A stretch of 64,000 nt of DNA from assembly GCA_041484665.1 (NCBI GenBank), contig JBGPIA010000011.1:64001-128000 (forward strand), written 5' to 3'. This DNA is from Candidatus Krumholzibacteriia bacterium (GTDB lineage: Bacteria > Krumholzibacteriota > Krumholzibacteriia > JAJRXK01). Both the position numbers and the translations under genes were made by a program. This document shows, piece by piece, positions 5,845-48,449 of the stretch. Under the pieces are notes generated by a model, which saw only the letters and a list, made by a program, of their open reading frames with translations, ran no database searches and was not told the DNA's origin. The number at the start of each line of letters is the position of its first letter. Position 1 is the first letter of the stretch.

Positions 5845-5885
5845 GGTCTCCCCTCCGGTACCAGCCGGCGAATGCTGTGATCAGT

Positions 5886-10762: not shown

Positions 10763-10802
10763 GATGGGGACTTTTGCGGCAATATGTCATCAAGCTGTTT
10801 TC

Positions 10803-10815
10803 TATCAACTGGTTG
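10803..10815 (+). promoter_or_regulatory. IHF-binding consensus site
   Basis: TATCAACTGGTTG matches WATCAANNNNTTR exactly, in an AT-rich patch of the divergent intergenic region. Confidence 0.5.
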
Positions 10816-10916
10816 AGACATCGCTGTGGGCGCCCGCCCGCGCGGTCGTCTCGCAAAATCTGGCGAGCCGGTTCCGCGGGGGCCCCGTGGCGCGCGGCCT
10901 GCGCAGTCGGAAGGAC

Positions 10917-12275
10917 ATGGAAGCACCCACTGCGCGCACGCATCGCCACGCGCGGATCGCCCAGGCGACCGAGCTGCTTGGCCTGATCCTGACCGGGAGG
11001 TTGCCAGCCGACCGGCAGATGGACGCCTACTTCCGCGGCCGCCGTCAGATGGGCTCGCGGGACCGGGCGTTCGCCGCCGAGACGGTCTACGGCTGCCTGC
11101 GCCGGGCGCGCACGCTCGAGCAGATCGTCGGGCCGGCGCCGCTGGGGCCGCTCGCGCCGCGGCCAGCGCCACTGCCCACGCCATCCCCCACTCCATCCCC
11201 CGCGCCGCCGCCCGCGGCGGCTTTGGTCGCGGCGTGGCTCCTGGCCTTCGGGGGCTGGACTGCGGGCGACCTGGCCGAGGCGGGCTTTCCGGGCGATGCG
11301 GACGCGCTCGAGGCCCGCGCGCGCGCGTTCGATCCATCGTCACTTCCGTTCGCGGTGCGCGCCGATCTGCCCGATTGGTTGGCGGAGCGCCTGGTCGCCC
11401 AGTGGGGCGAAGCGGAGGCCCTCGCCCTGGCCGAGGCACTCAACCGCCCCGCAACGCTGGACATCCGGGTCAACGCGCTCAAGACCACGCGCGCCGAGCT
11501 GGCGCGGCGCCTGCGCGCAGACGGCGTCGAGATGGAGCCCACGCCGCTCTCGCCGGCCGGCCTGCGCCGCGCCGAGCGCGCGCCGCTGTTCGCGTCCGCG
11601 AGCTTCAAGGACGGCCTCTTCGAGGTGCAGGACGAGGGGAGCCAGCTCGTGTCGCTGCTGGTGGAGCCGCGTCCCCACGACCGCGTGGCCGACTTCTGCG
11701 CGGGGGCGGGGGGCAAGACGCTCCACCTGGGCTCGCTCATGGGCAATACGGGGGTACTGTACGCGGTCGATGTTTCGCCGCGGCGCCTGGCGGAGATCCG
11801 GCCCCGCCTGCGCCGATCGGGGTTGCAGACGGTGCGTGCCTTCCCCATCGAGCACGAGGGCGACCGCCGGCTCAAGCGCCTGCAGGGCAAGCTCGACCGC
11901 GTCCTGGTCGACGCGCCCTGCTCGGGCACGGGGACACTGCGGCGCAATCCCGACATCAAGTGGCGTCCGGTCGACCTGCCTGGGCTGCAGGAGGAGCAGC
12001 AGCGCATCCTCCAGAGCGCCGCTCGCCTGGTGAAGCCTGGCGGACGTCTGGTGTACGCCACCTGCAGCCTGCTGCGCGAGGAGAACGAGGCCGTGGTCGA
12101 CGCGTTTCTCTCCGAGGCCGCAGGGGCGGGGTTCCGCCGCGTGCACGCCGGGGAGATCCTGCGGAGCGCCGGGATCGTGGCGTCCGATCTTGTGACCTCG
12201 CGCGGCGATCTCTGCCTGCTGCCCCACCGCCACGGAACCGACGGATTCTTCGCGGTGGCGCTCGACCGCGGATAG
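10917..12275 (+). CDS. RsmB/NOP (Fmu/Sun) family RNA m5C methyltransferase
   Basis: FEVQDEGSQ, DFCAGAGGKT, VLVDAPCSGTG, YATCS, TDGFF motifs. ATG at 10917 after GGAAGGA. Confidence 0.92.
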   Translation: MEAPTARTHRHARIAQATELLGLILTGRLPADRQMDAYFRGRRQMGSRDRAFAAETVYGCLRRARTLEQIVGPAPLGPLAPRPAPLPTPSPTPSPAPPPAAALVAAWLLAFGGWTAGDLAEAGFPGDADALEARARAFDPSSLPFAVRADLPDWLAERLVAQWGEAEALALAEALNRPATLDIRVNALKTTRAELARRLRADGVEMEPTPLSPAGLRRAERAPLFASASFKDGLFEVQDEGSQLVSLLVEPRPHDRVADFCAGAGGKTLHLGSLMGNTGVLYAVDVSPRRLAEIRPRLRRSGLQTVRAFPIEHEGDRRLKRLQGKLDRVLVDAPCSGTGTLRRNPDIKWRPVDLPGLQEEQQRILQSAARLVKPGGRLVYATCSLLREENEAVVDAFLSEAAGAGFRRVHAGEILRSAGIVASDLVTSRGDLCLLPHRHGTDGFFAVALDRG

Positions 12276-14898: not shown

Positions 14899-16008
14899 AT
14901 GATGGCGGATCGCCCGACTCCCACCTACTGGGACTACCTCCAGCTCGACCACCTGCTCGACCTGCAGGGCGGTCTCGAGGAGGACGAGGGCCTGCTCATG
15001 CCCGACGAGCTGCACTTCATCATCGTGCACCAGGTCTTCGAGCTGTGGTTCAAGCTGATCCTGCGCGAGCTGCGCCTGGCGCGCGACCATCTGGCAGCGC
15101 CGCGGGTGCCCGAGGAGTCGATCCCCTTCGTCGTGCACCACATGCGCCGCGTGAGCGAGATCCTGGAGCTGGCGGTGGAGCAGTTCCGCGTCATGGAGAC
15201 GCTCACGCCGCAGGATTTCCTCGCGTTTCGCGACAAGCTGACGCCCGCCAGCGGCTTCCAGTCCTACCAGCTGCGCGAGATCGAGATCGTGATGGGGCTG
15301 GGCGAGGAGCAGCGCCCTGACTTCGGCGACGCGCACGCGTTGGATCACATCAAGGAGGTGGCGTCCACCAGCTCCACGGGCCGGATGGCCTGGGCGCGCA
15401 TCGAGCGGGCGCAGCGCGAGGTCACCCTGCGCCAGGCCATGCACGACTGGCTCTACCGCACGCCCATTCAGGGAATCGGGCCCGGCGATCCGGGCGACCC
15501 GGCGGCGGTCGAGCAGTTCCTGGCAGAGTACCTGGCCGCCCACGCGCAACTGCTGCAGCAGCAGGAGGCGCGCCTGCTCGAGTCCGGCACGGGCGAGGCC
15601 GCCGGGTTGCGCGCGCGCTTTGCGCGCAGCGCCGAGCAGGCGCAGGAGTTCCTGCACGCCCTCGACGTGCCGCCGCCGCTGCGCCCGCGCGCGCAGCGCA
15701 TCCGCGCCGGCATCCTGTTCATCGAGTCCTATCGCGAGCTGCCGCTGTTGGCCTGGCCGCGGATCCTGGTGGACACCGCCGTCGAGCTGGACGAGCGGCT
15801 GGTGCTGTGGCGCACGCGCCACGCGCGGATGGTGGAGCGCACGATCGGCCGCCGGATCGGCACGGGCGGCTCCTCGGGCGTGGATTACCTGGATGAGACC
15901 GCGCGGCGGCGGATCTTCCCCGAGCTGTGGACCGTGCGCACGCTGCTCTTGCCGCGGGAGGCTCTGCCGGTCCTGCGGCGGGCGGAGCTGTACGGGTTCG
16001 CGCAGTAG
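14899..16008 (+). CDS. kynA: Tryptophan 2,3-dioxygenase (long form, 369 aa)
   Basis: TYWDYLQLDHLLDLQ, DELHFIIVHQVFELWFK, FRDKLTPASGFQSYQLREIE, WRTRHARMVERTIGRRIGTGGSSGVDYL. Confidence 0.95.
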   Translation: MMADRPTPTYWDYLQLDHLLDLQGGLEEDEGLLMPDELHFIIVHQVFELWFKLILRELRLARDHLAAPRVPEESIPFVVHHMRRVSEILELAVEQFRVMETLTPQDFLAFRDKLTPASGFQSYQLREIEIVMGLGEEQRPDFGDAHALDHIKEVASTSSTGRMAWARIERAQREVTLRQAMHDWLYRTPIQGIGPGDPGDPAAVEQFLAEYLAAHAQLLQQQEARLLESGTGEAAGLRARFARSAEQAQEFLHALDVPPPLRPRAQRIRAGILFIESYRELPLLAWPRILVDTAVELDERLVLWRTRHARMVERTIGRRIGTGGSSGVDYLDETARRRIFPELWTVRTLLLPREALPVLRRAELYGFAQ

Positions 16009-21914: not shown

Positions 21915-22352
21915 TTACGAGAGGGAGGGCAGCCCAGCGACCGGAAAGCCTTCCCGTGTGGCCGCCTCTGCCAGTCGTTCATCGAGGGTGACGAACGGCA
22001 GATCCGGTGGCCGTTCGCGGGAGGCGACGAGCGCTGCGGCAAGCTGAAGCGCATCTGCCGCACGCAGGGCGTGAAGGCCCAAGACGCGCAGCGCGCGATC
22101 AGCGACCAGGTCCAGCGTGATGACCTGACTCATGCTCGAGAACAGCAGGGATGCACGATTGCGCGCCGCGGACAGGTCCGCCGTCCCCAGGCGTCCCGCG
22201 CGATGGCTGCGCGCGAGGGCAGAATGGACTTCGACACGTGACAGCTCCCAGGTGATGCCCACGGAATCGCTGCGCAGGAGGTCCAGGGCCCAGGTCGTCT
22301 GCGCCTCGAGGACCAGCAGCGGAACGATCGCGGAGCTGTCCCAATACCTCAT
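21915..22352 (-). CDS. vapC: VapC family PIN-domain toxin
   Basis: YWDSSAIVPL, RVEVHSAL, LRAADALQLAAA, FVTLDERL. Confidence 0.92.
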   Translation of the reverse strand: MRYWDSSAIVPLLVLEAQTTWALDLLRSDSVGITWELSRVEVHSALARSHRAGRLGTADLSAARNRASLLFSSMSQVITLDLVADRALRVLGLHALRAADALQLAAALVASRERPPDLPFVTLDERLAEAATREGFPVAGLPSLS

Positions 22353-22651
22353 CGTCCCGACTCCCGCTCCTGCAGCAGCGCGGCGAGCACCCCTGCCCCC
22401 TGACCGGGTGGCGGCTCGTCACGCAGCTCGCGCGGGAGGCGACCGGTTCCTGGACGGACCAAGCCGTCACGCTCGAGCACGACGAGTCGCTCCGCATCGG
22501 TTGCTGTGAACCCACCGGCGCGGCTGCCGATCGGAACAATCTCCGCGATGGGTTTGTCGCGGTCGAAGATGAGAACGCGACCGCCGGACCGGACGTGGTC
22601 GAGGTACTGGCTCAAGCGGTCCCGCAACTCGGATATATTGGCTCTTTTCAT
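22349..22651 (-). CDS. Phd/YefM family antitoxin
   Basis: MKRANISELRDRLSQYLDHVRSGGRVLIFDRDKPIAEIVP; ATGA overlap with the toxin. Confidence 0.9.
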   Translation of the reverse strand: MKRANISELRDRLSQYLDHVRSGGRVLIFDRDKPIAEIVPIGSRAGGFTATDAERLVVLERDGLVRPGTGRLPRELRDEPPPGQGAGVLAALLQERESGR

Positions 22652-28681: not shown

Positions 28682-28993
28682 GATGTCGAGGCTCCCGGCA
28701 GAAATGGATCGCCCGGCGCTGGTCCCCCCGGGAGCCACCCTCGCGCAGGGGAGCGGGAGGGCCGGAAAGCCGGGGAGCAGCGGCAAGCAGCAGGCTCTGA
28801 GCGCGGGCAAGATAACCTAGAATGACAGAAACTGCACGAAATTGGACCCCCGCCCGCGCCGGCCGAAGCGGCGTGCTGCGGACGGTCGCGCCTGCCCGTG
28901 GGGCCGCGCGCTCGAGCGGGCCAGTCTCGCCGGCCTGTTGGGCCGGGCCATCCCCTCGATCGCACGGTTCGTGTGTGGCTGGGCATTCCCCGC

Positions 28994-29200
28994 TCAATGC
29001 ACAGGGCGTACCACCCGGCAGGGGTTCCCCACGGCCAGCACGCCCGCTGGGATGTCCTGCACGACCACGCTGACTGCACCGATCGTCGTGCCCGAGCCGA
29101 TCGTAATGCCGGGTCAGACGATAACCCCACCGCCGATCCAGACGTCGTCTCCGATCGTCACCGGCGAGACCGGCTCGCGGCCGCTGGCACGCTCGCGCGG
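28994..29200 (-). pseudogene. C-terminal remnant of a maltose/galactoside O-acetyltransferase (hexapeptide repeat) with in-frame TGA
   Basis: Manual translation [70 protein letters not shown] at 29116-29114; no N-terminal half. Confidence 0.8.
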
Positions 29201-29320
29201 CGAAGCGGACCGTGGTTCCCCCACCGACGATCAGCGCGAGCGCGCCGCGCCGCACGCGGCTCAAGCGGGCCGCCCCGCGCATTGACCCTCCGCTGTGGAT
29301 GCGGCAAGCTCGGGTGCGTC

Positions 29321-30550
29321 ATGGAGTTCGACATCTTCTTCTCGATCAGCCAGACGCCCGTCAGGGGATTCACGCCCGACGAAGCCACCATGTTCCGCAA
29401 TTTTTTCGCGCAGGTCGAGGCTGCGGACGCTCTGGGTTTCGGCGTGGCCTGGATTGCGGAGTCGCATTACTCCAGCGAGGTGCAGAAGCTGCACCGCAAA
29501 CCGGTGATCCCCCATTGGCAGGGGGAGGTCGGCCTGAATGTGGATTTCCTGCAGCTTTCCCACCATATCTTCCAGCGCACGCGGCGCATCGAGACCGGCT
29601 CGGCGGTGATGAACATCGTGTGCAACGGCGGCCCGCTGGCCGCGGCCGAGCGCGTAGCGGCATTCCTCGCGCTGCACGGGCTGAATCCGCAGGAGCACCG
29701 GCGTATCCACGTCGGGTTCTCGGCCGGGCGCTTCGACTTCATGAACCGTGTCACCGGCGTCGACGCGCGTGACCGGATCGAGGAGGCCGCCTGGCCGGTG
29801 GTGAAGGGCAGGATCTTCGCCGAGGCGGCTGAGATCTTCGTCCGGCTGCTGCGTGGTGAGACGCTGTCCAGCGACGACGTGCGCGCTCCGGTGCTGGCGC
29901 GCGCCGAGTTCCGCACCGACCCCGACTGGCAGCGCCTGCGCGAGCTGGCGGGCGCGGCCGCGCGCGACAGCATCCCCATGGCGCGGCGCTGGGTATTCGA
30001 GCCCGTGAAGATCGTCCCGCAGCAATGGCGGCGCGATCTGCTGCAGCTGGTCGCTGGCTCGCACGATCCGCAGGTGCAGGAGGACCTCAACCAGTTCCTC
30101 CCCGTACAGGTCTTCAATCTGTCGATCACCCCTGCGGAGGTGATCGAGGATACACACCGGCGCATGTCCAGGGCCTATCATCTTTCGGGCGGACCGTGGC
30201 GGCGCAGCTACATGCCGCGCACGGTGTTCGTGTTCGTGAACGAGGAAGCGGGGCTGACGCCGCAGGGCCGTCGTGAGGCGGCGCGCGACGAGGCGCGCGC
30301 GGCGCTGGGCGCGTACTGGACGGCGCTGGAGGGGACGCTCGATCCCAAGAAGGTCGAGGGCGCGGCCGACAACGCCCTGATCGGCAACGCGCAGGACCTC
30401 GTCGAGCAGATCGTGGCCCGCTTCCACGCCGAGGATCGTCTCATGCTGTGGTTCGATTTCTTCAACCACGACAACGCGCGCGTGATCCGCAACATGCAGG
30501 TCTTCATGGAGCAGGTGGCCCCCCGCGTCCGGGGCGCGGTGCGGGCGTAG
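29321..30550 (+). CDS. LLM class (luciferase-like) flavin-dependent monooxygenase, 409 aa
   Basis: QVEAADALGFGVAWIAESH, TRRIETGSAV, AAERVA, ALIGNAQDLVEQI, FMEQVAPRV. Confidence 0.88.
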   Translation: MEFDIFFSISQTPVRGFTPDEATMFRNFFAQVEAADALGFGVAWIAESHYSSEVQKLHRKPVIPHWQGEVGLNVDFLQLSHHIFQRTRRIETGSAVMNIVCNGGPLAAAERVAAFLALHGLNPQEHRRIHVGFSAGRFDFMNRVTGVDARDRIEEAAWPVVKGRIFAEAAEIFVRLLRGETLSSDDVRAPVLARAEFRTDPDWQRLRELAGAAARDSIPMARRWVFEPVKIVPQQWRRDLLQLVAGSHDPQVQEDLNQFLPVQVFNLSITPAEVIEDTHRRMSRAYHLSGGPWRRSYMPRTVFVFVNEEAGLTPQGRREAARDEARAALGAYWTALEGTLDPKKVEGAADNALIGNAQDLVEQIVARFHAEDRLMLWFDFFNHDNARVIRNMQVFMEQVAPRVRGAVRA

Positions 30551-30552
30551 GC

Positions 30553-31041
30553 GACCCGCGCTTCTGGCGCATCGAGTCGCCGACGCCACGCGACCATATC
30601 CATCACTTCAGGCTGACCGATGCCATGCAACTCGATGCGTGGCTGGCGAAGCTCGTGCGGGAGGCCAACGCTGGGGTTGCAACAGGGTCCTCAGGGAGAC
30701 GAACTGCGCTCCCCAACACAGAAAGCGCCGGCGGCTCGGCGCGGCCGCCCCAGGCGGTCGTGATCGACCTCGAGCGTATCCCGTCGGCTGGCCGTGACGT
30801 GGCGCTGTGGTTGCGTTATCAGCGGGGCACGCGCTCGGTGCCGATCGTGTTCGTGGACGGCGAGCCCGAAAAGCTGGCGCGGTCGCAGGCCGACCTGCAC
30901 CGGCGCTTCGCCGGGGCCGCGCGCTCGCTGGTGGAGGGCGGGGCGCTCTGGATCCCGTGGCGCAAGCAGGCCTCAGGCGCCGGCGCCGATCTCACCCAGG
31001 CCGCCGTCCGTGCCTTCGGACTGGCGGCCGGACGCGACTGA
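30553..31041 (+). pseudogene. Mosaic of gene remnants: DUF5655-like C-terminal fragment, then an internally deleted receiver-like/DUF3052-like fragment
   Basis: PRFWRIESPTPRDHIHHFRL...QLDAWL; AVVIDLERIPSAGRDVA...VPIVFVDGEPEK; GALWIPWRKQASG..DLTQAAVRAFGL, stopping before the expected VD.K..A motif. No credible start. Confidence 0.45.
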
Positions 31042-31130
31042 GACCCCCGCCGGCCGCGCAGCGCCCGCTTGTCGCGCTCCCGCGACGGCCAGGGCGAGCT
31101 GGCACAAGCGACCGAGGAGGAACAGCGTCC

Positions 31131-31565
31131 GTGACCGAGCCTGTGGTCTGGACCTTCTTCTATGGGTCCTACATGAACCTGGACGTCCTGCGGGACACCG
31201 GCCTGGTTCCGCAGGAGTGGGAGGTGGCGCAGCTGGGCGGGTTCGACCTGCGCATCGCGCCCCGCGCCAACCTGGTCGCCTCCAACGTGGGGTGGGTCTT
31301 CGGAATCGTTGCCACCGCCACCCACCCCGAGCTGGAGCGCCTCTATGCCCACGCCCGCGACGTCCTGCGCGAGATCTACGTGCCGCATCCTGTTCTCGTG
31401 ACCGCCCGTAGTGGGAGGTGGCGGCCGGCTCTGTGCTACATCGCGCCGGCCATGGAGCCCCGGCCTGCCGAGCGCGACTACGTGGAGCGCATCCTCCGGC
31501 CGGCGCGGGAGCTCGGCTTCCCATGGTGGTATGTGCGGCAGATCGAGGGCTTCATCCCACAGTAG
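31131..31565 (+). CDS. Gamma-glutamylcyclotransferase family protein
   Basis: GAGGAGG RBS with GTG start; FFYGSYMN; VFGIV; YVERIL..ARELGFP..Y. Confidence 0.82.
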   Translation: MTEPVVWTFFYGSYMNLDVLRDTGLVPQEWEVAQLGGFDLRIAPRANLVASNVGWVFGIVATATHPELERLYAHARDVLREIYVPHPVLVTARSGRWRPALCYIAPAMEPRPAERDYVERILRPARELGFPWWYVRQIEGFIPQ

Positions 31566-31669
31566 TCGCGCGGAGGCGGCCTGGGGAGGCGAGTCGTCGC
31601 TGGAAACGGCCGTCCCGGCTGCCTGCACGACTGCCCCGTCCCGAACCGTCCGCGCGAGGAGCGACGACC

Positions 31670-32179
31670 ATGGACCATCAGGAGCAGATCCAGGCCCTGC
31701 AGCGCGGTGGCCAGTCCATTCTCGCGCTGCTCGATGGGCACCCCATCGAGCAGGTGCGCTGGAAGCCAGCGCCACAGAAGTGGTCGTTGCTGGAGATCCT
31801 CAATCATTTGTGCGACGAGGAGCGCGACGACTTCCGCAAGCGGATCGCGCTCGTGCTCGAGGATCCCGCGCAGCCGTGGCCGCCCATCGATCCGGAAGGC
31901 TGGGCCCGCGACCGCGACTACAACAGCCGCGACCTGCAAGCGTCGCTCGCGGGCTTCCGCCGGGAGCGCGCGGCGTCGCTGCAGTGGCTCGTGGGGCTGC
32001 CGTCGCCGGACTGGACGGCAGAGCACAAGCACCCGAAGCTGGGCGGCCTGCGCGCCGGCGATCTGCTCGCCGCGTGGGTTGCCCACGACCTGCTGCACAT
32101 CCGCCAGATCGCCAACACGCGCTTGGCCTGGGTTGCGATGTTCGCCGAGCCGTACTCGACGCGCTACGCGCTCCCGTGA
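31670..32179 (+). CDS. DinB family protein
   Basis: KWSLLEILNHLCDEE...WVAHDLLHIRQI (His triad); GAGGAG RBS. Confidence 0.88.
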   Translation: MDHQEQIQALQRGGQSILALLDGHPIEQVRWKPAPQKWSLLEILNHLCDEERDDFRKRIALVLEDPAQPWPPIDPEGWARDRDYNSRDLQASLAGFRRERAASLQWLVGLPSPDWTAEHKHPKLGGLRAGDLLAAWVAHDLLHIRQIANTRLAWVAMFAEPYSTRYALP

Positions 32180-32254
32180 GATCGGACGCGGGGCGCGTGC
32201 GGCCCATGGCCCGCGAGTGCCGTGGGCGCACACCACGAGCGAAAGGTCCTGACC

Positions 32255-32764
32255 ATGCTGGCACCCATCCTGGCTGGAATCCTGACCCGCGATCTGCGAG
32301 CACTGCGCCGTGAGGTCGAGGCCTATTCGGACGAAACGGACGTCTGGCGCGTGGCGCCGGGCCTCAGCAACTCTACCGGGACGCTGGTGCTGCACCTGGC
32401 CGGCAACCTCCAGCATTTCGTTGGTGGGCAACTGGGCGGCACGGGCTACGTGCGCGACCGCAACGCGGAGTTCAGCCTCCGCGATCTTCCGCGGCACGAG
32501 CTCCTGGCGCGGATCGACGCGGCGGTTGGCGCCGTGGAGCGCGGGCTCGCCTCCATCTCCGACGCGCAGCTCGCTGCGCCATTCCCGCAGGCTGTGGGCG
32601 GTGTGACGATCACGACCGCCGACTTCCTCGTCCATCTGGCCGCGCACCTGGGCTACCACCTGGGCCAGGTGGACTACCATCGGCGGATCCTGACTGGCAA
32701 CGCGTCCAGCGTCGGCGCGTTGTCGGTCGCCGAGCTGCGCACTGCGAAGAAGCTCCAGCCCTGA
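32255..32764 (+). CDS. DinB/DUF1572 family protein
   Basis: NSTGTLVLHLAGNL, YVRDRNAEF, HLAAHLGYHLGQVDYHRR. Confidence 0.88.
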   Translation: MLAPILAGILTRDLRALRREVEAYSDETDVWRVAPGLSNSTGTLVLHLAGNLQHFVGGQLGGTGYVRDRNAEFSLRDLPRHELLARIDAAVGAVERGLASISDAQLAAPFPQAVGGVTITTADFLVHLAAHLGYHLGQVDYHRRILTGNASSVGALSVAELRTAKKLQP

Positions 32765-32989
32765 CCGGCCCGGGCGTGCAAGGAGCCCCACTGTGACAGC
32801 GCAACGGCCCAGTGCGGTCGTGCTGGCCGCGATCCTCATGCTGGCCCAGACCGAAGGCGCCGCACGGCCTGCCAATGCCCGCCGGCTAGCTCGCAGGCGG
32901 CGCTGGCGGGCATCGGACCCCCCTGATACGCTGCTTGCGGCCGCATGATGCAGCGTCCATCCGCTCGCGCAGTCCGGAGAGCCTCCCGC

Positions 32990-34219
32990 ATGACAGCTCG
33001 CAAGAACTCCGCGCGACCTCCACGTCCCGCGTCCCCCGCGCGGCTGCGCCCCCCCGCACCCGCCGCGCTTGCGCCTCGCACCGCGACGCCGCCCCGCGGA
33101 CCGTCCCGCCCCGGCTCGGACGTCTACCCACGCAGCCCTCTGGGCGAGACCATCGCGGGCCTGCCCACCGGTCGGGATGTCGAGTGGGAGCCGCTGCTGG
33201 ACTACCGCCGCAACGGTGTCAGCGAGACGACCATCCACGGCGCTGTGGCCTGGGCGAGCGGCCGGCGGATCGTCCACTCCTTCGGCGGCAATGTGCTCTG
33301 CTACGGGCGCAGCATGATGAAGCCGCTGATGATCAAGGTGTTCGCCGCGGACCTCGATCCGCTCCTCGCGTGGCCGCAGAAGGCGATCGCGGTCGCCAGC
33401 CACAACGGCAGCGCCGAGCACGTGGCCGCCGCACAGGAGATCCTCCCGTCCCAGGAGTGGGGGCTGATGCAGACGCCCCTCGATGTCCCGCTCGTGCAGT
33501 TCGGCCGGCAGATCCGCCGCCCGCGCCGCTGGTACAACAACAGCTCCGGCCTGCACGCGGCGGTGCTCCTGGGCTGCCGGCTCAAGGGGTGGAACCGGGC
33601 GGGCTACACGCTGCAGCAGCATCCATTTTTCGCCGAGTACCTGGAGCAGGTGCGCCGCTTCCTGGGGCCCGACTGGCGTCCGCTGCGCATCGCGCGCGAC
33701 GGCGACGGATTCCCCACGCTCTCCAACACCGTGAGCGAGCTGGCGATCACGTACGCCGGACTGGCCGCCACACGCGACGAGGACTGGATCTGGGAATCGA
33801 TGGTGCGCCATCCCGATCTGGTCGGCGGCTTCAACCGACTGGACTCGACGATCCTCAAGGCGTGCGCCGGCAACGTGATTGCGAAGGAGGGCGCCGACGG
33901 GTTGCTGGGGATGGCGATCGTCCACCCGGACTATCCGGACGGTTTGGGGATCGTGATCAAGATCGCCCACGGCTGGAATCCGCGCGCGAGCTGGTACGTC
34001 GCGCGCGCGTGCCTTGGCGTGCTGGGTTTCGAGCTGCGCAACCCATACCCGCTCTACAAGCAGAAGGCCTTTCTGGTGCCGGGCGTCGTGCCGCCCGAGC
34101 GTCTGGCCCTGCTGGAGTCCATCCTGACCTGGGACGAGTGGGATCCGGACCGCGACCGGTGGTACTACGACTGGGACGCGTACGCCGACGGCGAAGTCGG
34201 CACGCCCACGGACCGCTAG
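32990..34219 (+). CDS. Class 3 (Rhizobium etli-type, Asparaginase_II) asparaginase-like hydrolase with a divergent metal site
   Basis: RNGVSETTIHG, RSMMKP, ASHNG, NNSSGLHAA, DGDGFP, HPDLVGG..RLDS, AKEGADG, GIVIKIAHG. Confidence 0.82.
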   Translation: MTARKNSARPPRPASPARLRPPAPAALAPRTATPPRGPSRPGSDVYPRSPLGETIAGLPTGRDVEWEPLLDYRRNGVSETTIHGAVAWASGRRIVHSFGGNVLCYGRSMMKPLMIKVFAADLDPLLAWPQKAIAVASHNGSAEHVAAAQEILPSQEWGLMQTPLDVPLVQFGRQIRRPRRWYNNSSGLHAAVLLGCRLKGWNRAGYTLQQHPFFAEYLEQVRRFLGPDWRPLRIARDGDGFPTLSNTVSELAITYAGLAATRDEDWIWESMVRHPDLVGGFNRLDSTILKACAGNVIAKEGADGLLGMAIVHPDYPDGLGIVIKIAHGWNPRASWYVARACLGVLGFELRNPYPLYKQKAFLVPGVVPPERLALLESILTWDEWDPDRDRWYYDWDAYADGEVGTPTDR

Positions 34220-34385
34220 GGCGGATTCGGGGGCGAGCCCGGCCGCGGCCCAGGCGGGTCCTTGGGCCAGACGCTGTAGCTTGGGCCCAGGCCGGCACCG
34301 TCACCCACGACACCGTGCCGGTTCTTCGGCGCCGCCGTGGGTCCCTGCCCTGGTACTACGTCCCGGCCCCTGCTACCCTCGCGCT

Positions 34386-38496
<4,111 letters not shown>

Positions 38497-38646
38497 GGGA
38501 GCGATGGAGGGCGCGAAGGCGAGGAAAGCCGCGGTACCGCTGGGTCTGGCGAGCGGGAATACGTCCCGTACAGACCACTGGCGCGCCGACGTCAGCACAA
38601 TGTATGTCCGGCTTCGCCGGGAACACCGGCCTCCGGGCGCTTCGAG

Positions 38647-39999
38647 ATGACCATGCGCGGGCACGGCCCCACCACTAGCCAGCTGATCGCTCTGCTGGAG
38701 GCCAGCAAGCTGCTCAACAGCACGCTGGACCTCACCACGCTGCTCAATCGCATCCTGCAGTGCGCGCGGGACCTGAGCGGCGCCGACCGCGCCACGCTCT
38801 ACCTGGTCGACCACGAGACGAGCGAGCTATGGACTATGACCATGGCGGGCGACAAGATCCAGTCGTTCCGCCTGCCGATGGGCAAGGGGATCGCGGGTCG
38901 CGCCGCGCAGACTGGCCGGGTGGGCAATATCGCCGACGCCTATCGCTCCCCGCATTTCAACCGCGACCTGGACGCCAAGACCGGGTACCGCACGCGCTCG
39001 ATGCTGACCGTGCCGTTCCGCGGGCGCGACCGCCGCGTGCTCGGCGTGATCCAGACCATCAACCACCTGGAGCGCGGCCACTTCGGCCCGGCGGAGCGCT
39101 GGTCGATCGAACGTCTGGGGGACTACGCCGCGCTGGCCATCGAGAACGCGATGTTCGTCAAGGCGCTGCAGGACAAGAAGCGCATGGAGGAGGACCTGCT
39201 GGCGGCGCGCCACATCCAGGGCAGCCTCCTGCCCAAGAGCCTGCCCCGCGTCGCGGGCGTTGACCTGGCCGCCCGCTACACGCCGTGCCTGGAGGTGGGG
39301 GGCGACTGCTTCGATGCCCTGGCGCTGCCCGGCGGCCGCCTGGGCTTCTCCCTGGGCGACATCTCCGGCAAGGGGATCACGGCCGCGCTCATGATGGCTA
39401 ACCTGCAAGCGCTCTTCCGCGTGGAAGCGCGCCGCGACGGCGAGCCGCACGCGGTGCTCTCGACGATGAACCGCCTGTTCCACGAGAGCACGCAGGTCGA
39501 GCACTTCGCGACCTTCTTCTACGGCATCCTCGATCCGGTCACCGGCTTGCTGCGCTTCTGCTCCGCGGGCCACGAGTCGCCGGTGCTCCTGCGCGGCGAC
39601 GGCAGCATCCTGGAGGTGGATCGTGGCGGCGTGCCGCTGGGCATCCTGCCGGACTTTCCGTTCGTGACGCAGGAAGCCGCGCTGCGCCAAGGCGACCTCT
39701 GCCTCATCTACAGCGACGGCATCACCGAGCAGAACGATCCCAAACGCCGGGAGTTCGGTCGCGCGCGGCTGATCTCCATCGTGCGGCAGTCGCGCCACTT
39801 GCCCGCCGAGGCGCTCGCCCAGGCCGTGGAGGTGGCCGTGCGCGAGTTCGCCCGCGGCCAGAAGCAGTGGGACGACCTCACGCTGGTGGTCTTGCGATTG
39901 GCGGTGGGCACGCCAGCGGTGGTGGCGGACGGCGCAGCGCCCGCGGTCACGAGCGGGGAGCGGCCAGGCGCTCCGGCGGAAAGCGCCGGGGACCATTGA
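38647..39999 (+). CDS. GAF-domain PP2C/SpoIIE (RsbU-like) phosphatase
   Basis: GAF motifs ADRATLYL, GKGIAG, TGYRTRSML; PP2C motifs VGGDCFD, GDISGKG, SAGH, YSDGITE, DDLT. Confidence 0.92.
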   Translation: MTMRGHGPTTSQLIALLEASKLLNSTLDLTTLLNRILQCARDLSGADRATLYLVDHETSELWTMTMAGDKIQSFRLPMGKGIAGRAAQTGRVGNIADAYRSPHFNRDLDAKTGYRTRSMLTVPFRGRDRRVLGVIQTINHLERGHFGPAERWSIERLGDYAALAIENAMFVKALQDKKRMEEDLLAARHIQGSLLPKSLPRVAGVDLAARYTPCLEVGGDCFDALALPGGRLGFSLGDISGKGITAALMMANLQALFRVEARRDGEPHAVLSTMNRLFHESTQVEHFATFFYGILDPVTGLLRFCSAGHESPVLLRGDGSILEVDRGGVPLGILPDFPFVTQEAALRQGDLCLIYSDGITEQNDPKRREFGRARLISIVRQSRHLPAEALAQAVEVAVREFARGQKQWDDLTLVVLRLAVGTPAVVADGAAPAVTSGERPGAPAESAGDH

Positions 40000-42712: not shown

Positions 42713-43530
42713 TGCTCTCGCACGCGACGATGCCCGCAGCGGGCCCCTACGACGATCCAGCCGTCTACGATATCCTCCACACCCCCGGATCGGCGGCGGA
42801 GCTGGACACGGTGCAGCGCCTCGCGCGCCGCCACCTGGAAGCGCAGGGGCGAGGCCGGCGCCGGTACACGTGGCTCGAGCCGGCGTGCGGCACCGGGCGC
42901 TATCTGCGCCTGCTGGCGCGGCGCGGCGAGCACGCCGTTGGATTCGATCGTGACCCGGCGATGGTGGCGTATGCCCGTCGCGGGATGCGTGCGCTGGGGC
43001 CGCAGCGGCGCGCCCGCGTGCTGGTCGCCGACATGACCCGCTTCGCCGACCGGGTGGGGCCGCGCCGCATCGACATCGCCTTCAACCTCGTCAACACGAT
43101 CCGCCACTTGCAGAACGATGCGCAGATGCAGGCGCATCTCATCGAGGTTGCCCGCGTGCTGCGCGCCGGTGGCCTGTACGTGGTGGGCATGAGCCTGACG
43201 CAGTACGGAGCGGAATTGCCCAGCGAGGATCTCTGGGTGGGAAGGCGCGGCTCCTGCCGGGTGACCCAGCTCGTGCAGTACCTGCCGCCGGGGAGCCCGG
43301 GCCCCCGGGGGCGGATCGAAACTGTGATCAGCCATCTGATGATCGAGCGTCCCCGGGGCGTCGAGCATCGAGATGCGACCTACGACTTGCGCTGCTACGA
43401 CGCCGCGCAGTGGCGTAAATTGGTGGAGCGTAGCCCGCTGCGGATCGTCGCGGCGGCCGATGCCCACGGCAACCCGATCGTGGACTGGAATACTACCTAT
43501 GTAGTTTTCTTGATGCGGTCCGCCCCTTGA
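42712..43530 (+). CDS. Class I SAM-dependent methyltransferase
   Basis: YDDPAVYDI, WLEPACGTGR, ADMTRF, LRAGGLYVVG; start overlaps the cax stop. Confidence 0.88.
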
Positions 43531-43709
43531 CAGGTCCGTCCCCGGGGGTGGACCTTGTCCCGGTCGCCCCTGGCTGTCCTGCGTTGTCCCCACCGGGGCA
43601 CGGGCATAGAAGCTGCAACCTCAGCAGGGCCTCCGACCCTCGAGCTCGACCGGCGCGACCATTCCGGAGCGGTTTCGGGGCCGTCGGCCACTGGCAGGCC
43701 AGGCTCAAC

Positions 43710-44636
43710 ATGGCGACGATCCAAGCACCCCGCGTGCCTTCCTCCCGCGCTGGCGCGGCCGAGCGTTCGGGGACCTCCCTCAATCCGCTCGCCATGCTGC
43801 CGAATCTGCTCCTGTTGGCGATCACGCTGGCAGGCCTTCCGTATTACGTGCTCGCGGCAGCCGCGCGACTGCGCAGCCCCTTCCATCCGTGGTTGAAATC
43901 GTCGGGCTACGTAGGACAGACGGCGGGCCTCGTGACGTTCGCTGGTTTCCTGTTCATGTGGCTCTACCCGATGCGCAAGCGGATGCGCCTGCCGCCCCGC
44001 GCCGGGTCGGTCCCGCAGTGGCTCGACGTGCACATCGTCGTAGGGCTCACACTGCCGCTGCTGGGCGCGCTCCACGCCGGCTGGCGCTTCCGGGGCCTGA
44101 TCGGCCTGGGCTATCTGGCCATGCTCATCGTGTGCCTGAGCGGAGTGATCGGTCGGTATCTCTACGTCAGGATCCCGCGCAGCCGCGCCGGAGCCGAGCT
44201 GGACCGCGAGGAGGTCGCGGCGCAGCGCCGCCAGCTCCTGGCCGACCTGACGGAGGCCACCGGGCTCACCACCGAGGATCTGGAGCAGATGCTGACCGTG
44301 CAGACGGTACGGGCGTCTCGCGGCAGGCTGCTGGGGGCGCTCGCGCAAATGGTGGTCGACGATTTCGCGCGCGCGCGCACCCTGCGCGCTTTGCGCAGGC
44401 GCTGGAAGGCGCGCGGGCCCGACGGTGCGACCCTGGACCGCACCGCCCTCAACCGCGGGCTCTCGCTCGCCCGAAGGGAGATGGCCCTCAGCCAGCAGGT
44501 CCGCCTGCTGGAGGCCACGCAGAAGATGTTCCGTTACTGGCATGCGGCGCACAAACCGGTCGCGATCGCGGCATTCGGCGCCGTCACCGTCCACGTGATC
44601 GTCGTGATCGCAGTGGGCTCGACCTGGCTCTGGTAG
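43710..44636 (+). CDS. Inner-membrane protein with intramembrane histidines (ferric-reductase-like / cytochrome b-like), 308 aa
   Basis: About 5 TM segments; WLDVHI, ALHAG, SGVIGRYLY, FRYWHAAHKP, VHVI. Confidence 0.72.
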   Translation: MATIQAPRVPSSRAGAAERSGTSLNPLAMLPNLLLLAITLAGLPYYVLAAAARLRSPFHPWLKSSGYVGQTAGLVTFAGFLFMWLYPMRKRMRLPPRAGSVPQWLDVHIVVGLTLPLLGALHAGWRFRGLIGLGYLAMLIVCLSGVIGRYLYVRIPRSRAGAELDREEVAAQRRQLLADLTEATGLTTEDLEQMLTVQTVRASRGRLLGALAQMVVDDFARARTLRALRRRWKARGPDGATLDRTALNRGLSLARREMALSQQVRLLEATQKMFRYWHAAHKPVAIAAFGAVTVHVIVVIAVGSTWLW

Positions 44637-44662
44637 GACGAAGTCGAGGCGGGAGCGCTCCG

Positions 44663-46105
44663 ATGGGAATGCTGCTCACCACACTGGCCTTTGCCGTCCT
44701 CACGGCCGCGCTCGTCGCCCACCACGTGCGCCGCGGCGCAGCAGCGCCGGGTCAAGCTTGCGCGCCCGTCGCGGCCTGCCCGCGTTGCAAGGCGGCCATC
44801 GCGCCTGGGACGACCCGCTGCTCGCGCTGTGGCGTTCCGCTGCAGGCCTTCGAAGTCGTGGCCGCCGCCAAGGCCAGCGAGGAGGTCAGCGAGGGCGGGG
44901 ACAAGTTGCACGCGGTCGTGCGCGCGGACCTCTGCGTCGGCTGCGGGTCGTGCGTCTCCGTCTGCCCCGAGCCGGGCGCCATCCGGATGGACCACAAGCT
45001 CGCCGTGGTGGCCAAGGCGCTCTGCGTGGGGCACGGCAAGTGCGCCGAGGCCTGCCCGGTGGGGGCCATCATCATGTCCACCGGCGCCGCGGTGCACCGC
45101 GTCGAGGTGCCGGAGATCGACATCCACTTCGAGAGCAACGTGCCCGGGGTCTACGTCGTCGGCGAGCTGGGCGGGCGTGGACTGATCAAGAACGCCATCA
45201 ACGAGGGCAAGATCGCCGTCGAGCACATCGCCGACGAGCTGGGGGGAGGGTCACGCCGCTCACCGGACACAACGGGCGTCCACGATGTGGTCATTGTCGG
45301 ATCGGGACCCGCCGGCCTCAGCTCCGGACTGCAGGCCCTCCAGTCGAAGCTGCGGTACGCTGTCCTGGAGCAGGGGACGCTCGCCGACACGATCCGCAAG
45401 TACCCGCGGGCGAAGCTGCTGCTGGCCGAGCCGGTGACGGTTCCGCTGTACGGCGATCTGTGGGTGGCCGATGCTTCGAAGGAGTCATTGCTGAAGGTGT
45501 GGGAGACGGTCATCGCCAGCACGGGACTGCAGGTGCGCACGGGCCAACGTGTGGTCAACGTGGCACGCCACGGCGATCTGCTCCACGTCGCGACGCCCGA
45601 CGCAGTGTTCCGCACGCGGCGCGTGGTGCTGGCCACGGGCCGGCGCGGGACACCGCGGCGCCTGGGGGTACCCGGCGAGGAGCTGGGCAAGGTCATCTAT
45701 GACATCGCTGAGATGGAATGCTTCGCCGGCCAGCGGATGCTCGTGGTCGGCGGCGGCGACAGCGCCGTGGAGTCGGCGCTGGGGCTGGCCCGGCAGCCGG
45801 GCACGGTGGTGACGCTCAGCTACCGCGGCGATTCCTTCAGCCGCGCGAAGGAGCGGAACAGGACGAAGCTCGAGACGGCCGTCGCAGAGGGGAGCGTGCG
45901 CGCGCTGCTGCGTAGCGAGGTGCGGGCGGTCCACGAGCAGGAGGTCGAGATCGAGGTGGCGGGCAAGCGCAGCATGCTGCCCAACGACACAGTGGTCGTG
46001 CGCATCGGCGGCGAGCCGCCCGCCGCATTCCTGAAGCAGATCGGCATCCGCATCGTCAAGAAGGACGTGCCGCTGCCGCAGGGAGAGGAGGCGATGGTTG
46101 GCTAG
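44663..46105 (+). CDS. Membrane-anchored 4Fe-4S dicluster / FAD-dependent NAD(P)H oxidoreductase (TrxB/YpdA-like fold), 480 aa
   Basis: N-terminal TM; CPRC..CSRC ribbon; CVGCGSCVSVCP and CVGHGKCAEACP; VIVGSGPAG; LATGRRG; VVGGGDSA..SYRG. Confidence 0.85.
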   Translation: MGMLLTTLAFAVLTAALVAHHVRRGAAAPGQACAPVAACPRCKAAIAPGTTRCSRCGVPLQAFEVVAAAKASEEVSEGGDKLHAVVRADLCVGCGSCVSVCPEPGAIRMDHKLAVVAKALCVGHGKCAEACPVGAIIMSTGAAVHRVEVPEIDIHFESNVPGVYVVGELGGRGLIKNAINEGKIAVEHIADELGGGSRRSPDTTGVHDVVIVGSGPAGLSSGLQALQSKLRYAVLEQGTLADTIRKYPRAKLLLAEPVTVPLYGDLWVADASKESLLKVWETVIASTGLQVRTGQRVVNVARHGDLLHVATPDAVFRTRRVVLATGRRGTPRRLGVPGEELGKVIYDIAEMECFAGQRMLVVGGGDSAVESALGLARQPGTVVTLSYRGDSFSRAKERNRTKLETAVAEGSVRALLRSEVRAVHEQEVEIEVAGKRSMLPNDTVVVRIGGEPPAAFLKQIGIRIVKKDVPLPQGEEAMVG

Positions 46106-48449
46106 CACGCGCCGGGGAACGCTTGCATGGACGCAGCGTCCACCGACGCCGACCCCGCTGGCCCAGCATCCGTTGGCGCAGCGTCCGGCGCCGCCGCGCC
46201 GCACGCTGTGGCCGCCTCAAGCGGCTAGCGCCGTGCGCACGACGGCCACGGCCCTGGGTGCCGCGCTGGCCCTGACGTGCGTCGTCACCGCAGCCGCCCG
46301 GGCGCAGATCTCGCCGGGCCCGCTGTCGCGCGCCCACGCCAGCCTGGAGGGCAACCTCCACTGCGCGAAGTGCCACGGTGGCGGAGGCGAGAGCGCGCAG
46401 GACCAGCGGTGTCGTGCTTGTCATGAGGAGATCGACTGGCTCATCCGGCAGGAGCGGGGACTCCACGGGCACGAGGTGAAGGGGAACTGTAAGAGCTGCC
46501 ATCCGGAGCATGCCGGTGCCGGCTTCCAGCTGATCGTGTGGAAGGAGGGCAGCCCGGAGCGCTTCGACCACACGCGCACGGGCTGGGCGCTGGAGGGAAA
46601 GCATGCGACGGTGCAGTGCAAGGAGTGCCACAAGGCGAGCTTCCAGCAGCCGCAGATCGTGGCGCGGATGCAGCGCAAGGACAAGGCAGCGAGCTGGCTG
46701 GGTCTGGACTCCGGTTGCCGCTCCTGCCACGAGGACGTGCACCGGGGGACGCTTGGAGTGGATTGCATGAAGTGCCACGACACGAAAGCCTGGAAGCCGG
46801 CGCCGCGATTCGACCACGCGCTGTCGGACTTCCCGCTCACCGGCAAGCACGCGGCGAGGGCGTGCGCGAAGTGCCATGCCACGCCCGAGCTGAAGCTGGT
46901 GAAGGATCGGCAGGGGCACGCGATTCCGCTCTTCAAGCCGCTGCCGCACCAGGAGTGCTCCGCGTGCCATAAGGACCCCCATGCCGGCTCGCTGGGGGCC
47001 GCTTGCACCAAGTGCCACACGACCGACGACTTCCATCGCATCGACCACAAGACGTTCAATCACGACCTGACGCGCTACCCGCTGCGGGGCAAGCACGCGG
47101 CGCTGGCGTGCGCGAAGTGCCACGATCCGGCCACTGCGTGGGGTAAGAAGCCGGCGTTCGCTACGTGCGGCTCCTGCCACACGGATCCCCACGCTGGCCA
47201 GGCTACGAGCGCGGGCAAGCCGGCCGATTGCGCTGCCTGCCACAGCGTCCAGGGCTTCAAGCCGGGCACCTTCACGGTGCAGCAGCACGCCGCAACGCGC
47301 TACCCGCTGGACGGGCGGCACCAGCAGGTGAAGTGCTCCAGCTGCCATGGCCGCAAGCCACCGGGGGATGCGGCCAAGGCCGCGGCCACCGTCGGCAAGG
47401 CTGGCGTGTGGTTTCGTCCGACGCACGACCGCTGCGGTGATTGCCACGCTGAAGTGCACGGCGGCCAGCTCGCACACCGGCCCGACACGGGGGCCTGCGA
47501 AGGCTGTCACACCACGCAGGGCTGGCGCCCCAGCACCTTCACCGTGGCGGCACACGCCGCGCTGCGCCTGTCGCTGGAAGGCCGCCACGGCGCGATCGCC
47601 TGCTCCGCATGCCACGGGCCCGACCGCAGTGGGCTGCCACAGCTGCCAGGGCCCAAGGTCCTGGGCACCGCCCGCGTCGCATTCACGTTCACCGACGTCT
47701 CCTGCACGGCCTGCCATTTCGATCCCCATCACGGACGATTCAGCGCCGGGGGCGAGCGTGCCCGGTCCAAGGGTTGCCTGGACTGCCACGACCCGCGCGC
47801 GTTCCGCCCGTCAAAGGTGGACATCGCGGCTCACGCCGCGGCCCGCTTCGCGCTGGACGGCGCCCACCGCGCGGTGCCGTGCTTCGCCTGCCACCAGGAG
47901 CTGGCCGGCGCGGGCGGAGCGGCCAGCGGGGCGGCAAAGGCAGCCGCGAACGGTGCGGCGAACGGAGCGGCGAATGGGGCGGCGAACGGGACCGCGAGCG
48001 GGACCGTGAATCGGGCAGCGAACGCGGCCCCGATCGTGGCCACGGCGGCTGGTTCCGACACCGCCGCGGCTCGCGGGCGCGCACGCTCGACGCTGGTGGC
48101 TGCCACCGCCGCGGTGCGCCGCGCGTTGCCGTTCGCGATCGACAAGCGCGCATGCCGCGACTGTCACCGCAGCCCCCACGGCACACAGTTCGACGCACGG
48201 AAGGACCATGGAGCGTGCGAGAGCTGCCACGGTCTGGAGAGCTTCAAGCCCGCTGTGGGCTTCCATCACGCCAAGGACTCGTCGTATCCACTCGAGGGGG
48301 CGCACACGAAGGTTCCCTGCGCGCGTTGCCATCCCACGAAGACTGGCAGCGACCGACGCCCGCAGGTGATCTACCGTCCACTTTCCACTCGTTGTGAGAG
48401 CTGTCATGGGGCGGCGCCCGTAGCGCCGCTGAAAGGGGAGCTGCGATGA
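46098..48449 (+). CDS. Multiheme c-type cytochrome, 23 CXXCH motifs
   Basis: Signal peptide ending AARA-QISPGPLS.AH; 23 CXXCH counted by hand; triheme units FDH..(F/Y)PL.G.H. Start could be a later GTG. Confidence 0.93.
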   Translation: MASTRRGTLAWTQRPPTPTPLAQHPLAQRPAPPRRTLWPPQAASAVRTTATALGAALALTCVVTAAARAQISPGPLSRAHASLEGNLHCAKCHGGGGESAQDQRCRACHEEIDWLIRQERGLHGHEVKGNCKSCHPEHAGAGFQLIVWKEGSPERFDHTRTGWALEGKHATVQCKECHKASFQQPQIVARMQRKDKAASWLGLDSGCRSCHEDVHRGTLGVDCMKCHDTKAWKPAPRFDHALSDFPLTGKHAARACAKCHATPELKLVKDRQGHAIPLFKPLPHQECSACHKDPHAGSLGAACTKCHTTDDFHRIDHKTFNHDLTRYPLRGKHAALACAKCHDPATAWGKKPAFATCGSCHTDPHAGQATSAGKPADCAACHSVQGFKPGTFTVQQHAATRYPLDGRHQQVKCSSCHGRKPPGDAAKAAATVGKAGVWFRPTHDRCGDCHAEVHGGQLAHRPDTGACEGCHTTQGWRPSTFTVAAHAALRLSLEGRHGAIACSACHGPDRSGLPQLPGPKVLGTARVAFTFTDVSCTACHFDPHHGRFSAGGERARSKGCLDCHDPRAFRPSKVDIAAHAAARFALDGAHRAVPCFACHQELAGAGGAASGAAKAAANGAANGAANGAANGTASGTVNRAANAAPIVATAAGSDTAAARGRARSTLVAATAAVRRALPFAIDKRACRDCHRSPHGTQFDARKDHGACESCHGLESFKPAVGFHHAKDSSYPLEGAHTKVPCARCHPTKTGSDRRPQVIYRPLSTRCESCHGAAPVAPLKGELR

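Follow-up and report, generated by a model that had tools for sequence, protein, structure and literature searches.

The closest described relatives of the protein treated here are the class 3 L-asparaginases ReAV and ReAIV of Rhizobium etli, which hold a zinc ion in a Cys/Lys/Cys site (Cys135, Lys138 and Cys189 in ReAV). In ReAV, the zinc anchors the alpha-amino and carboxyl groups of the substrate and takes no part in catalysis; Arg47 is the alpha-carboxylate anchor, Ser48 the nucleophile and Lys51 the lysine of its Ser-Lys tandem (PMC12292245, PMC12951835). ReAV stripped of zinc with a chelator had a kcat of 432 vs 438 per s (PMC8602277). Cys135 hydrogen-bonds Lys51 and the three ligands are conserved at 99, 97 and 99%, respectively, in ReAV orthologues (PMC11024299); low variability of the metal site was also reported in PMC9500103. 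The gene analysed here encodes a class 3 asparaginase-fold protein lacking this site (the hydrolase; Table 1). It lies in a 64,000-nucleotide stretch of DNA (the window; positions 64,001 to 128,000 of contig JBGPIA010000011.1, assembly GCA_041484665.1) from a Candidatus Krumholzibacteriia bacterium.

The hydrolase is encoded beside a 2-aminophenol meta-cleavage module (AmnB, AmnA, semialdehyde dehydrogenase and RidA deaminase) and downstream of a luciferase-like flavin monooxygenase (LLM). In the reading that we consider probable, the LLM oxidises kynurenine in a Baeyer-Villiger reaction, and the hydrolase cleaves the beta-aspartyl-2-aminophenol product to aspartate and 2-aminophenol, with Asp239 replacing zinc as the anchor of the amino group.

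Active site and zinc-site states of the hydrolase

The original prediction described a class 3 asparaginase homologue with all three zinc ligands replaced and the Ser-Lys tandems intact, and the motifs, coordinates and acidic Trp-rich tail that it named were all recovered on translation of the frame (409 aa, with GGAG about 10 nt 5' of the ATG). Membership of the fold family was borne out by the PF06089 profile (E 2.5e-41; 142.2 bits, cut-off 25). In the phmmer alignment, NNSSGLH paired with NNCSGKH of ReAIV and DGDG with DGCS/DGCN (ReAIV 8cly, E 1.6e-13), so that S185, L188 and D239 occupy the places of ReAV Cys135, Lys138 and Cys189; with these residues, a Cys-type zinc site is impossible in this protein. 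Both Ser-Lys tandems (S108-K111 and S137-K299) and the Arg47 equivalent (R107) are present, together with equivalents of the second-shell residues His139, Tyr156 and Asp187 (H189, Y206 and D237, all invariant) and of the dimer-related Glu17 and Asp267 (E79 and D303, invariant in the core rows defined below).

An AlphaFold model, built from a 143-row alignment (pLDDT 94.2), superposed on ReAV 9g66/9g67 with Z 36.4 and a root-mean-square deviation of 2.4 A over 304 residues (Foldseek E 7.5e-19); the next structural matches were glutaminases (Z 13-14). The hydrolase matched neither of the KynB profiles PF04199 and TIGR03035 nor, at E 0.01, the NCBIfam kynureninase model TIGR01814. Short TAL-repeat matches at residues 124-155 were taken as chance, as no single stretch passed alone.

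For the comparison of zinc-site states, sequences were pooled as follows: a homologue search returned 1619 proteins, and the best 119 others (73-83% identical to the hydrolase) were combined with 80 GTDB loci, the loci of relatives and 50%-representatives. In all 80-locus counts, the GTDB loci are the best 80 of 514 matches, and many of them end at contig edges. Rows of at least 60% identity that spanned both motifs were kept as core rows (210, reduced to 174 after near-copies were dropped at 95%).

The 174 core rows comprised 114 Cys/Cys (113 with Glu and 1 with Lys between), 59 Ser/Asp and 1 Trp/Cys rows. Mixtures of Ser with Cys or of Cys with Asp were found in 0/174; a single Cys/Glu/Gly row had been removed as a near-copy before this count. 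D239 was present in 59/59 Ser-type and 0/114 Cys-type rows, and Arg107, Ser108, Lys111, Ser137, His189, Tyr206, Asp237, Thr243, Lys299 and Ala302 were invariant in both groups. The tail residues were kept in most core rows (W381 in 167, W384 in 170, D385 in 169 and P386 in 166), and the tail is missing from the alignment of more distant relatives (A3).

Position 188 of the 59 Ser/Asp rows was Gln in 29, His in 29 and Leu in 1. All four carriers of the window's own family (4/4) read NNSSGQH/DGDG, the sister protein in the 90% cluster reads NNSSGIH, with Ile at 188, and distant representatives (36-49% identity) are Ser/His/Asp or Ser/Asn/Asp. In these alignments Leu188 appears local to this copy and the Lys-to-Leu change untypical of the Ser/Asp group. 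Of the three changes originally described, Ser and Asp always occur together, and only Leu is local. A sequencing error at Leu188 was ruled out by contigs of four runs that were not flagged as source, in which the zinc-site codons had no differing letter (two of these contigs span nearly the whole gene with 0 differences), and by the Ile at the same site in the sister protein.

The zinc-site change is a conserved variant and not decay, as the original prediction had supposed: the Ser/Asp state recurs in 59/174 rows, the hydrolase deviates at 4 conserved columns against a median of 3 (146 rows) and is not an outlier, and the ratio of non-synonymous to synonymous substitution rates (dN/dS) was 0.14-0.22 against nine near loci, two of which gave identical values, indicating purifying selection.

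An initial tree, built from the 120 best homologues with the motif columns included, placed the Ser/Asp rows on one branch. When these columns were removed, the Ser/Asp rows fell within the Cys-type background and required 3 changes with FastTree (171 rows) or 2 with IQ-TREE (44 rows, quick tree; also 26 rows). A single Ser/Asp clade, as originally expected, was not rejected by the approximately unbiased (AU) test (p 0.52); the trees establish neither one origin nor several. The order of states was likely Cys/Lys/Cys, then Cys/Glu/Cys, then Ser/(Gln,His)/Asp, with Leu a late local change.

Glu300 was found in 100% of core rows, 91% of intermediate rows and 100% of rows of the fusion clade described below, against Val, Ser, Gly or Asp in 21 canonical rows. 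All three pathway-linked states share Glu300 and Asp303, which lie next to the second Lys and to the oxyanion hole, and the clade has also lost an otherwise invariant His (position 82) and a Cys-Gly pair (162-163). As judged from the alignments, E300 and D303 mark the pathway-linked clade as a whole.

Given the anchoring role of zinc in ReAV, Asp239 would pair directly with the substrate alpha-ammonium, and Ser185 would keep the hydrogen bond to Lys111; position 188 would be released, which would explain the Gln, His, Asn, Leu and Ile found there. Ser185/x188/Asp239 is best read as a later rebuild of the substrate anchor, and not as the origin of the pathway role. The original view that the three changes mark a new function was rejected, because Cys/Glu/Cys members (40/40 Cys-type loci) and canonical Cys/Lys/Cys members (7/7 beside an LLM) occupy the same operon; the link to the pathway therefore predates the loss of the zinc ligands and does not depend on it.

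An alternative that concerns the anchor only, and is compatible with the rest of the reading, is that the Ser/x/Asp site still binds a metal (Zn via His188 and Asp239, or Mg/Ca via Asp237 and Asp239). We regard this as rather unlikely: Asp and His are common ligands and His stands at 188 in 29 of the 59 Ser/Asp rows (Gln in 29), but the Leu of this protein and the Ile of its sister cannot ligate, and the position varies between Gln, His, Asn, Leu and Ile, compared with Glu or Lys in 114/114 Cys-type core rows.

Gene context and the proposed kynurenine route

The LLM gene lies 2.4 kb upstream of the hydrolase gene, behind three genes. The KynB gene of this genome is on another contig (G000:C8:58317-58928; TIGR03035 above cut-off). 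No kynureninase was found in this genome (93.65% complete), and its best match to PF01494 (KMO-type) was not strong (E 1.1e-4; an indirect test, made in this genome only).

The 80 GTDB loci contained LLM (66), amnA or amnB (65), KynB (24) and tryptophan 2,3-dioxygenase (TDO; 15) genes, and LLM or Amn genes were present in 80/80. The tie to the amn genes that had been foreseen for the variant was confirmed: all 40 Ser/Asp loci carry amnA or amnB and 29 carry LLM; in five Ser/Asp genomes without LLM at the locus, it was found elsewhere (5/5). Of the 40 Cys-type loci, 37 carry LLM, 25 carry amnA or amnB, and 40/40 have at least one of these. The alignment of more distant relatives was also used to scan metagenomes; among the 80 loci returned, 7 core members had canonical Cys/Lys/Cys, with LLM alongside in 7/7 and AmnA/B in 6/7.

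The whole genomes behind 50 of these loci, chosen for their longer contigs (28 Ser/Asp and 22 Cys-type), were searched: TDO was found in 50/50 and kynureninase in 0/50. For the remaining enzymes, these 50 genomes, the genome studied here and 10 related carriers were combined (61 carriers, two of whose handles look like one genome). 3-HAO was found in 1/61 carriers (the positive control was found) and KynB in 54/61, including this genome; six of the 7 without KynB are small archaeal assemblies. In an even sample of 151 Bdellovibrionota genomes, the 9 carriers all had TDO and 0 had kynureninase; among the other 75 TDO-positive genomes, 31 had kynureninase (29 above cut-off). In the window's class (61 genomes), the subfamily was found in 11 genomes plus one fragment, and LLM in 11, namely ten of these and the genome with the fragment. 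Nine genomes of that class (G067, G072, G075, G083, G093, G100, G102, G104 and G105) have kynureninase without TDO, and four (G063, G068, G073 and G109) have TDO without kynureninase and without the module.

The gene set is spread over Bdellovibrionota, Myxococcota, Planctomycetota, Acidobacteriota and Marine Group II/III archaea, and the mean identity of the subfamily across bacteria and archaea is 72%. In one strain available in culture, Sulfidibacter corallicola M133, the Ser/His/Asp form is accompanied by TDO, KynB, LLM and AmnBA.

A distant family (about 30% identity, Cys/Lys/Cys) has the hydrolase domain fused to KynB and adjoining TDO. The fusion was seen in 15/16 genomes, the other being cut by a contig end (L105-L108, L114 and L201-L210, Bdellovibrionota). 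Fusion genomes without kynureninase had LLM in 9/9 and AmnB in 5/9 (one a fragment), compared with 0/7 and 0/7 in those with kynureninase; one of the fusion loci (G228) reads AmnB, AmnA, RidA, dehydrogenase, two hydratase/decarboxylase genes, LLM, fusion and TDO. The exclusion between LLM and kynureninase over the 16 genomes (9 vs 7) corresponds to about three switches on the tree. In G199 (L105:4928-7815), which has neither LLM nor AmnB, a fusion with intact catalytic residues follows immediately after the genes for 3-HAO, ACMSD and kynureninase. P0131 appears to be a separate hydrolase-KynB fusion in a closer branch.

These genomes make kynurenine, are without the usual onward step and can cleave 2-aminophenol, which leaves a gap for an oxygenase and for a hydrolase that binds an aspartyl group. 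Kynurenine can be viewed as the aryl ketone of aspartate, and oxygen insertion on its aryl side yields a product that resembles asparagine but has an aryl group to leave. The mass balance (kynurenine + O + H2O = aspartate + 2-aminophenol) fits an aspartyl-binding hydrolase acting between the oxygenase and AmnBA.

The route would run as follows: the known enzymes TDO and KynB, whose genes are present, would form N-formylkynurenine and then kynurenine. The LLM would insert oxygen between ring and carbonyl (a type II Baeyer-Villiger reaction). The product would be the 2-aminophenyl beta-ester of aspartate, and this ester may in turn become N4-(2-hydroxyphenyl)-asparagine; such O-to-N acyl shifts are ordinary chemistry. 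Ser108 would attack the beta-carbonyl, releasing 2-aminophenol and then L-aspartate, and AmnBA, AmnC and RidA (known enzymes, genes present) would open and deaminate the ring. The hydrolase would thus be a Ser-Lys serine hydrolase that transfers a beta-aspartyl group to water in kynureninase-free tryptophan breakdown. LLMs with Baeyer-Villiger activity are known (PMC12239570).

Several points weigh against this proposal. Genes, fold, residues and co-occurrence were observed directly; from these we infer both reactions, the intermediate and the anchor. The LLM barrel also houses other oxygenases and F420 enzymes, and the fold alone does not fix the reaction. None of the shared neighbours stood out as a flavin reductase (one is encoded elsewhere in the genome). 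In the window's class, kynureninase was found in 2/11 carriers and 9/50 others, with no exclusion seen there, and four TDO-positive genomes had none of the hydrolase, LLM, AmnB and kynureninase. The genomes are related and mostly incomplete, and the counts are not independent. Four LLM-positive fusion genomes (incomplete assemblies) showed no AmnB; in the 7 kynureninase-positive fusion genomes without LLM or AmnB, the hydrolase domain retains R/S/K, S, C/K/H, Y, D/C and K, so the domain may be of use even where the LLM product is absent. ReAIV and ReAV are described as being without beta-aspartyl peptidase activity (PMC13451416). Finally, the ReAV variants C135A and C189A are inactive (PMC11024299), so that simple loss of the thiols is not harmless. 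The role of zinc in class 3 asparaginases has been a puzzle: it is not catalytic, yet the Cys-to-Ala mutants are dead. The three natural states found in one operon at 70-80% identity (Cys/Lys/Cys, Cys/Glu/Cys and Ser/x/Asp) make the anchor model directly testable.

The enzyme could instead be a broad beta-aspartyl amidase or a plain L-asparaginase serving as an accessory of the tryptophan genes, with the LLM product hydrolysed spontaneously or by another enzyme. All asparagine-binding residues apart from the zinc triad are retained, the hydrolase is the only PF06089 gene in its genome, and the fusion domains are catalytically intact in the 7 genomes without LLM or AmnB. We nevertheless judge this unlikely: LLM or Amn genes flank the gene in 80/80 GTDB loci, LLM and subfamily nearly coincide in the 61-genome class sample, bacterial and archaeal members of the subfamily average 72% identity, E300 and other active-site changes are clade-wide, and the genome already encodes class 1 and class 2 asparaginase-family genes. 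A role in kynurenine breakdown, other than that of a plain asparaginase, as originally suggested, is likely.

With the same net balance and the same gene set, the LLM could hydroxylate the ring to give 3-hydroxykynurenine, and the hydrolase could cut the aryl-carbonyl C-C bond to the same aspartate and 2-aminophenol. The lack of a strong PF01494 match in this genome would leave a slot for the LLM to fill, and serine C-C hydrolases acting on activated aryl ketones are known (e.g. 2,6-dihydroxypseudooxynicotine hydrolase). The catalytic set is, however, the unchanged amidase set, a hydroxyl meta to the acyl group would activate cleavage poorly on chemical grounds, and electron-rich aryl groups migrate readily in Baeyer-Villiger reactions, which makes this scheme quite unlikely.

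The aryl-formamidase activity (on N-formylkynurenine or a formylated aminophenol) that the original prediction had put forward is very unlikely. Serine amidase chemistry would suit it and KynB was not found in 7/61 carriers, six of them small archaeal assemblies, but KynB is present in 54/61, scores above cut-off here, lies beside the gene in 24/80 loci and is fused to distant relatives; moreover, the kept alpha-amino-acid anchor would, from the ReAV complex, point Ser108 at the beta-carbonyl and not at a formyl group. A decaying or catalytically dead copy, to which the rearranged operon (LLM and hydrolase parted by three genes, the usual short-chain dehydrogenase without a clear orthologue), the rare L188 and the dead ReAV Cys-to-Ala mutants might point, is scarcely credible beside the intact frame, the full catalytic set, the dN/dS and deviation values given above, and a Ser/Asp state shared by 4/4 carriers of the same family and by 59 sequences.

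With Baeyer-Villiger oxidation followed by aspartyl hydrolysis as the preferred reading, the gene set points to an unstudied tryptophan-breakdown route. We tentatively propose, as a possibility still somewhat short of probable, that predatory and protein-degrading bacteria and marine archaea degrade tryptophan to aspartate and 2-aminophenol without pyridoxal phosphate and kynureninase. The steps would be Baeyer-Villiger oxidation of kynurenine and cleavage by an aryl-aspartyl hydrolase of the class 3 asparaginase fold. The dioxygenases would then have a natural source of 2-aminophenol, and one branch of the hydrolases, including this gene, would have exchanged its zinc anchor for one aspartate and be naturally metal-free. 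If this is true, many 'L-asparaginase II' labels in these genomes are wrong, 2-aminophenol dioxygenases gain an everyday natural substrate source, and a naturally metal-free class 3 enzyme would show the purpose of the zinc; a class 3 enzyme that works without metal could also be modelled on the Ser/x/Asp form. Neither this route nor a class 3 variant with Ser and Asp was found described in the open-access literature, although the tables of PMC9500103 might list such sequences; bioRxiv 2026.06.05.730449 concerns the step after 2-aminomuconate in animals.

Features of the window and neighbouring genes

Table 1. Positions, strands and assignments of the hydrolase, its motifs and associated genes in the window
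Feature	Position	Strand	Remarks
Class 3 asparaginase-fold serine hydrolase, Ser/x/Asp variant	32990..34219	+	PF06089; function inferred from context
RSMMK motif	33308..33322	+	R107 = ReAV Arg47 (alpha-carboxylate anchor), S108 = Ser48 (nucleophile), K111 = Lys51
ASH motif	33395..33403	+	S137 = ReAV Ser80, second Ser-Lys tandem; invariant
NNSSGLH motif	33536..33556	+	S185 at Cys135, L188 at Lys138; H189 = His139, retained
DGDG motif	33698..33709	+	D239 at ReAV Cys189; putative anchor
AKEGAD motif	33881..33898	+	K299 = Lys263, A302 = oxyanion-hole Ala266; AKEG at 33881-33892
Acidic Trp-rich tail WDEWDPDRDRWYYDWD	34130..34177	+	Kept in core subfamily, missing from more distant relatives
LLM, proposed kynurenine Baeyer-Villiger monooxygenase	29321..30550	+	PF00296, E 1.4e-7
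AmnC-like (2-amino/hydroxy)muconate semialdehyde dehydrogenase	34386..35930	+	PF00171; best NCBIfam TIGR03216, 597 bits, below cut-off 693
AmnB, catalytic subunit of 2-aminophenol 1,6-dioxygenase	35927..37000	+	phmmer: 3vsg_B E 1.4e-121, 8ihg_A E 9.4e-121
AmnA subunit fused to RidA/AmnD-type 2-aminomuconate deaminase	36997..38496	+	PF02900 residues 35-277, PF01042 residues 370-497
Tryptophan 2,3-dioxygenase (TDO)	14902..16008	+	PF03301, E 2.5e-58; 13 kb upstream of LLM

The LLM model (pLDDT 92.6) has the luciferase-type TIM barrel, with Z 29.9 to luciferases and 26.2 to diketocamphane monooxygenase 5aec. A complex prediction for LLM and hydrolase scored 0.00 in both runs and was counted for neither side; the Trp/Asp tail might serve to dock the LLM. 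The AmnA and RidA parts of the fusion are joined by a long Ala/Ser-rich linker, and the same fusion occurs in many other loci.

An AIG2/gamma-glutamylcyclotransferase-like gene and two DinB-family genes (31131-32764) lie between LLM and hydrolase, which adjoin in most relatives; these three are not among the shared neighbours and were therefore treated as insertions. A short-chain dehydrogenase (SDR), present in 53/80 loci, may reduce 4-oxalocrotonate or 2-aminomuconate; this genome has no clear orthologue of it (best 38%, family median 49%). The queries used recovered no lower-pathway genes of AmnE/F type from this genome. A scan of 28800-38700 gave 0 promoter-like sites and 1 terminator-like site, on the minus strand, with no excess over shuffles.

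Elsewhere in the window, two very long open reading frames (1462-10949, minus strand; 1460 and about 1690 aa) have signal-like starts and C-terminal ends that are nearly identical, and are probably secreted paralogues. A small gene pair (21915-22651, minus strand) resembles, by eye, a prevent-host-death antitoxin and a PIN-domain toxin. At 43527-52791, a membrane protein, a ferredoxin-thioredoxin-reductase-like fusion (Fer4 and Pyr_redox) and long open reading frames ending in CxxCH-type motifs suggest a multiheme cytochrome cluster.

Comparison with described systems

ReAV and ReAIV (7os3, 9g66 and 8cly) have the same fold as the hydrolase and equivalents of both Ser-Lys tandems, Arg47, His139, Tyr156, Asp187, Thr193 and Ala266. 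The hydrolase differs in its low identity (about 24%), the Ser/Leu/Asp residues at the zinc triad, Met for Gln54 and Glu for Leu264, an extra N-terminal segment and the Trp/Asp tail, and it accompanies a tryptophan gene set instead of an asn operon. The serine glutaminases (YbgJ 1mki/3brm and human GLS) share the superfold (Z 13-14) and perform metal-free Ser-Lys catalysis on a side-chain amide, although they are only 11-16% identical and have Tyr in place of the second Ser (PMC8602277). By analogy, they may be regarded as a precedent for a metal-free anchor, and not as a family match.

Type II Baeyer-Villiger LLMs (the diketocamphane monooxygenases 5aec/4uwm and the progesterone LLM of Caenibius tardaugens) have the same barrel (Z 26-30), and oxygen insertion followed by a hydrolase is their usual design, as proposed here. 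The LLM of this locus has only 14-23% identity to any solved LLM, and kynurenine activity was not reported in the literature found on such LLMs.

The described 2-aminophenol meta-cleavage modules (AmnBA/CnbC, AmnC and AmnD; 3vsg and 8ihg; the ARO microcompartment dioxygenase 7txy) are closely matched by the AmnB, AmnA, dehydrogenase and RidA genes here. Those modules are known to be fed by nitro- or aminoaromatics, whereas the module of this locus is tied to TDO, KynB, LLM and the hydrolase; in a term search of the ARO microcompartment paper (PMC10470539), tryptophan and kynurenine were not mentioned.

The kynurenine pathway through KMO, kynureninase, 3-HAO and ACMSD has the same start (TDO and KynB) and the same end (2-aminomuconate semialdehyde, AmnC and RidA). 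It differs in the middle: kynureninase was found in 0/50 and 3-HAO in 1/61 carriers, and the proposed route would yield aspartate, not alanine, from the side chain and no quinolinate precursor.

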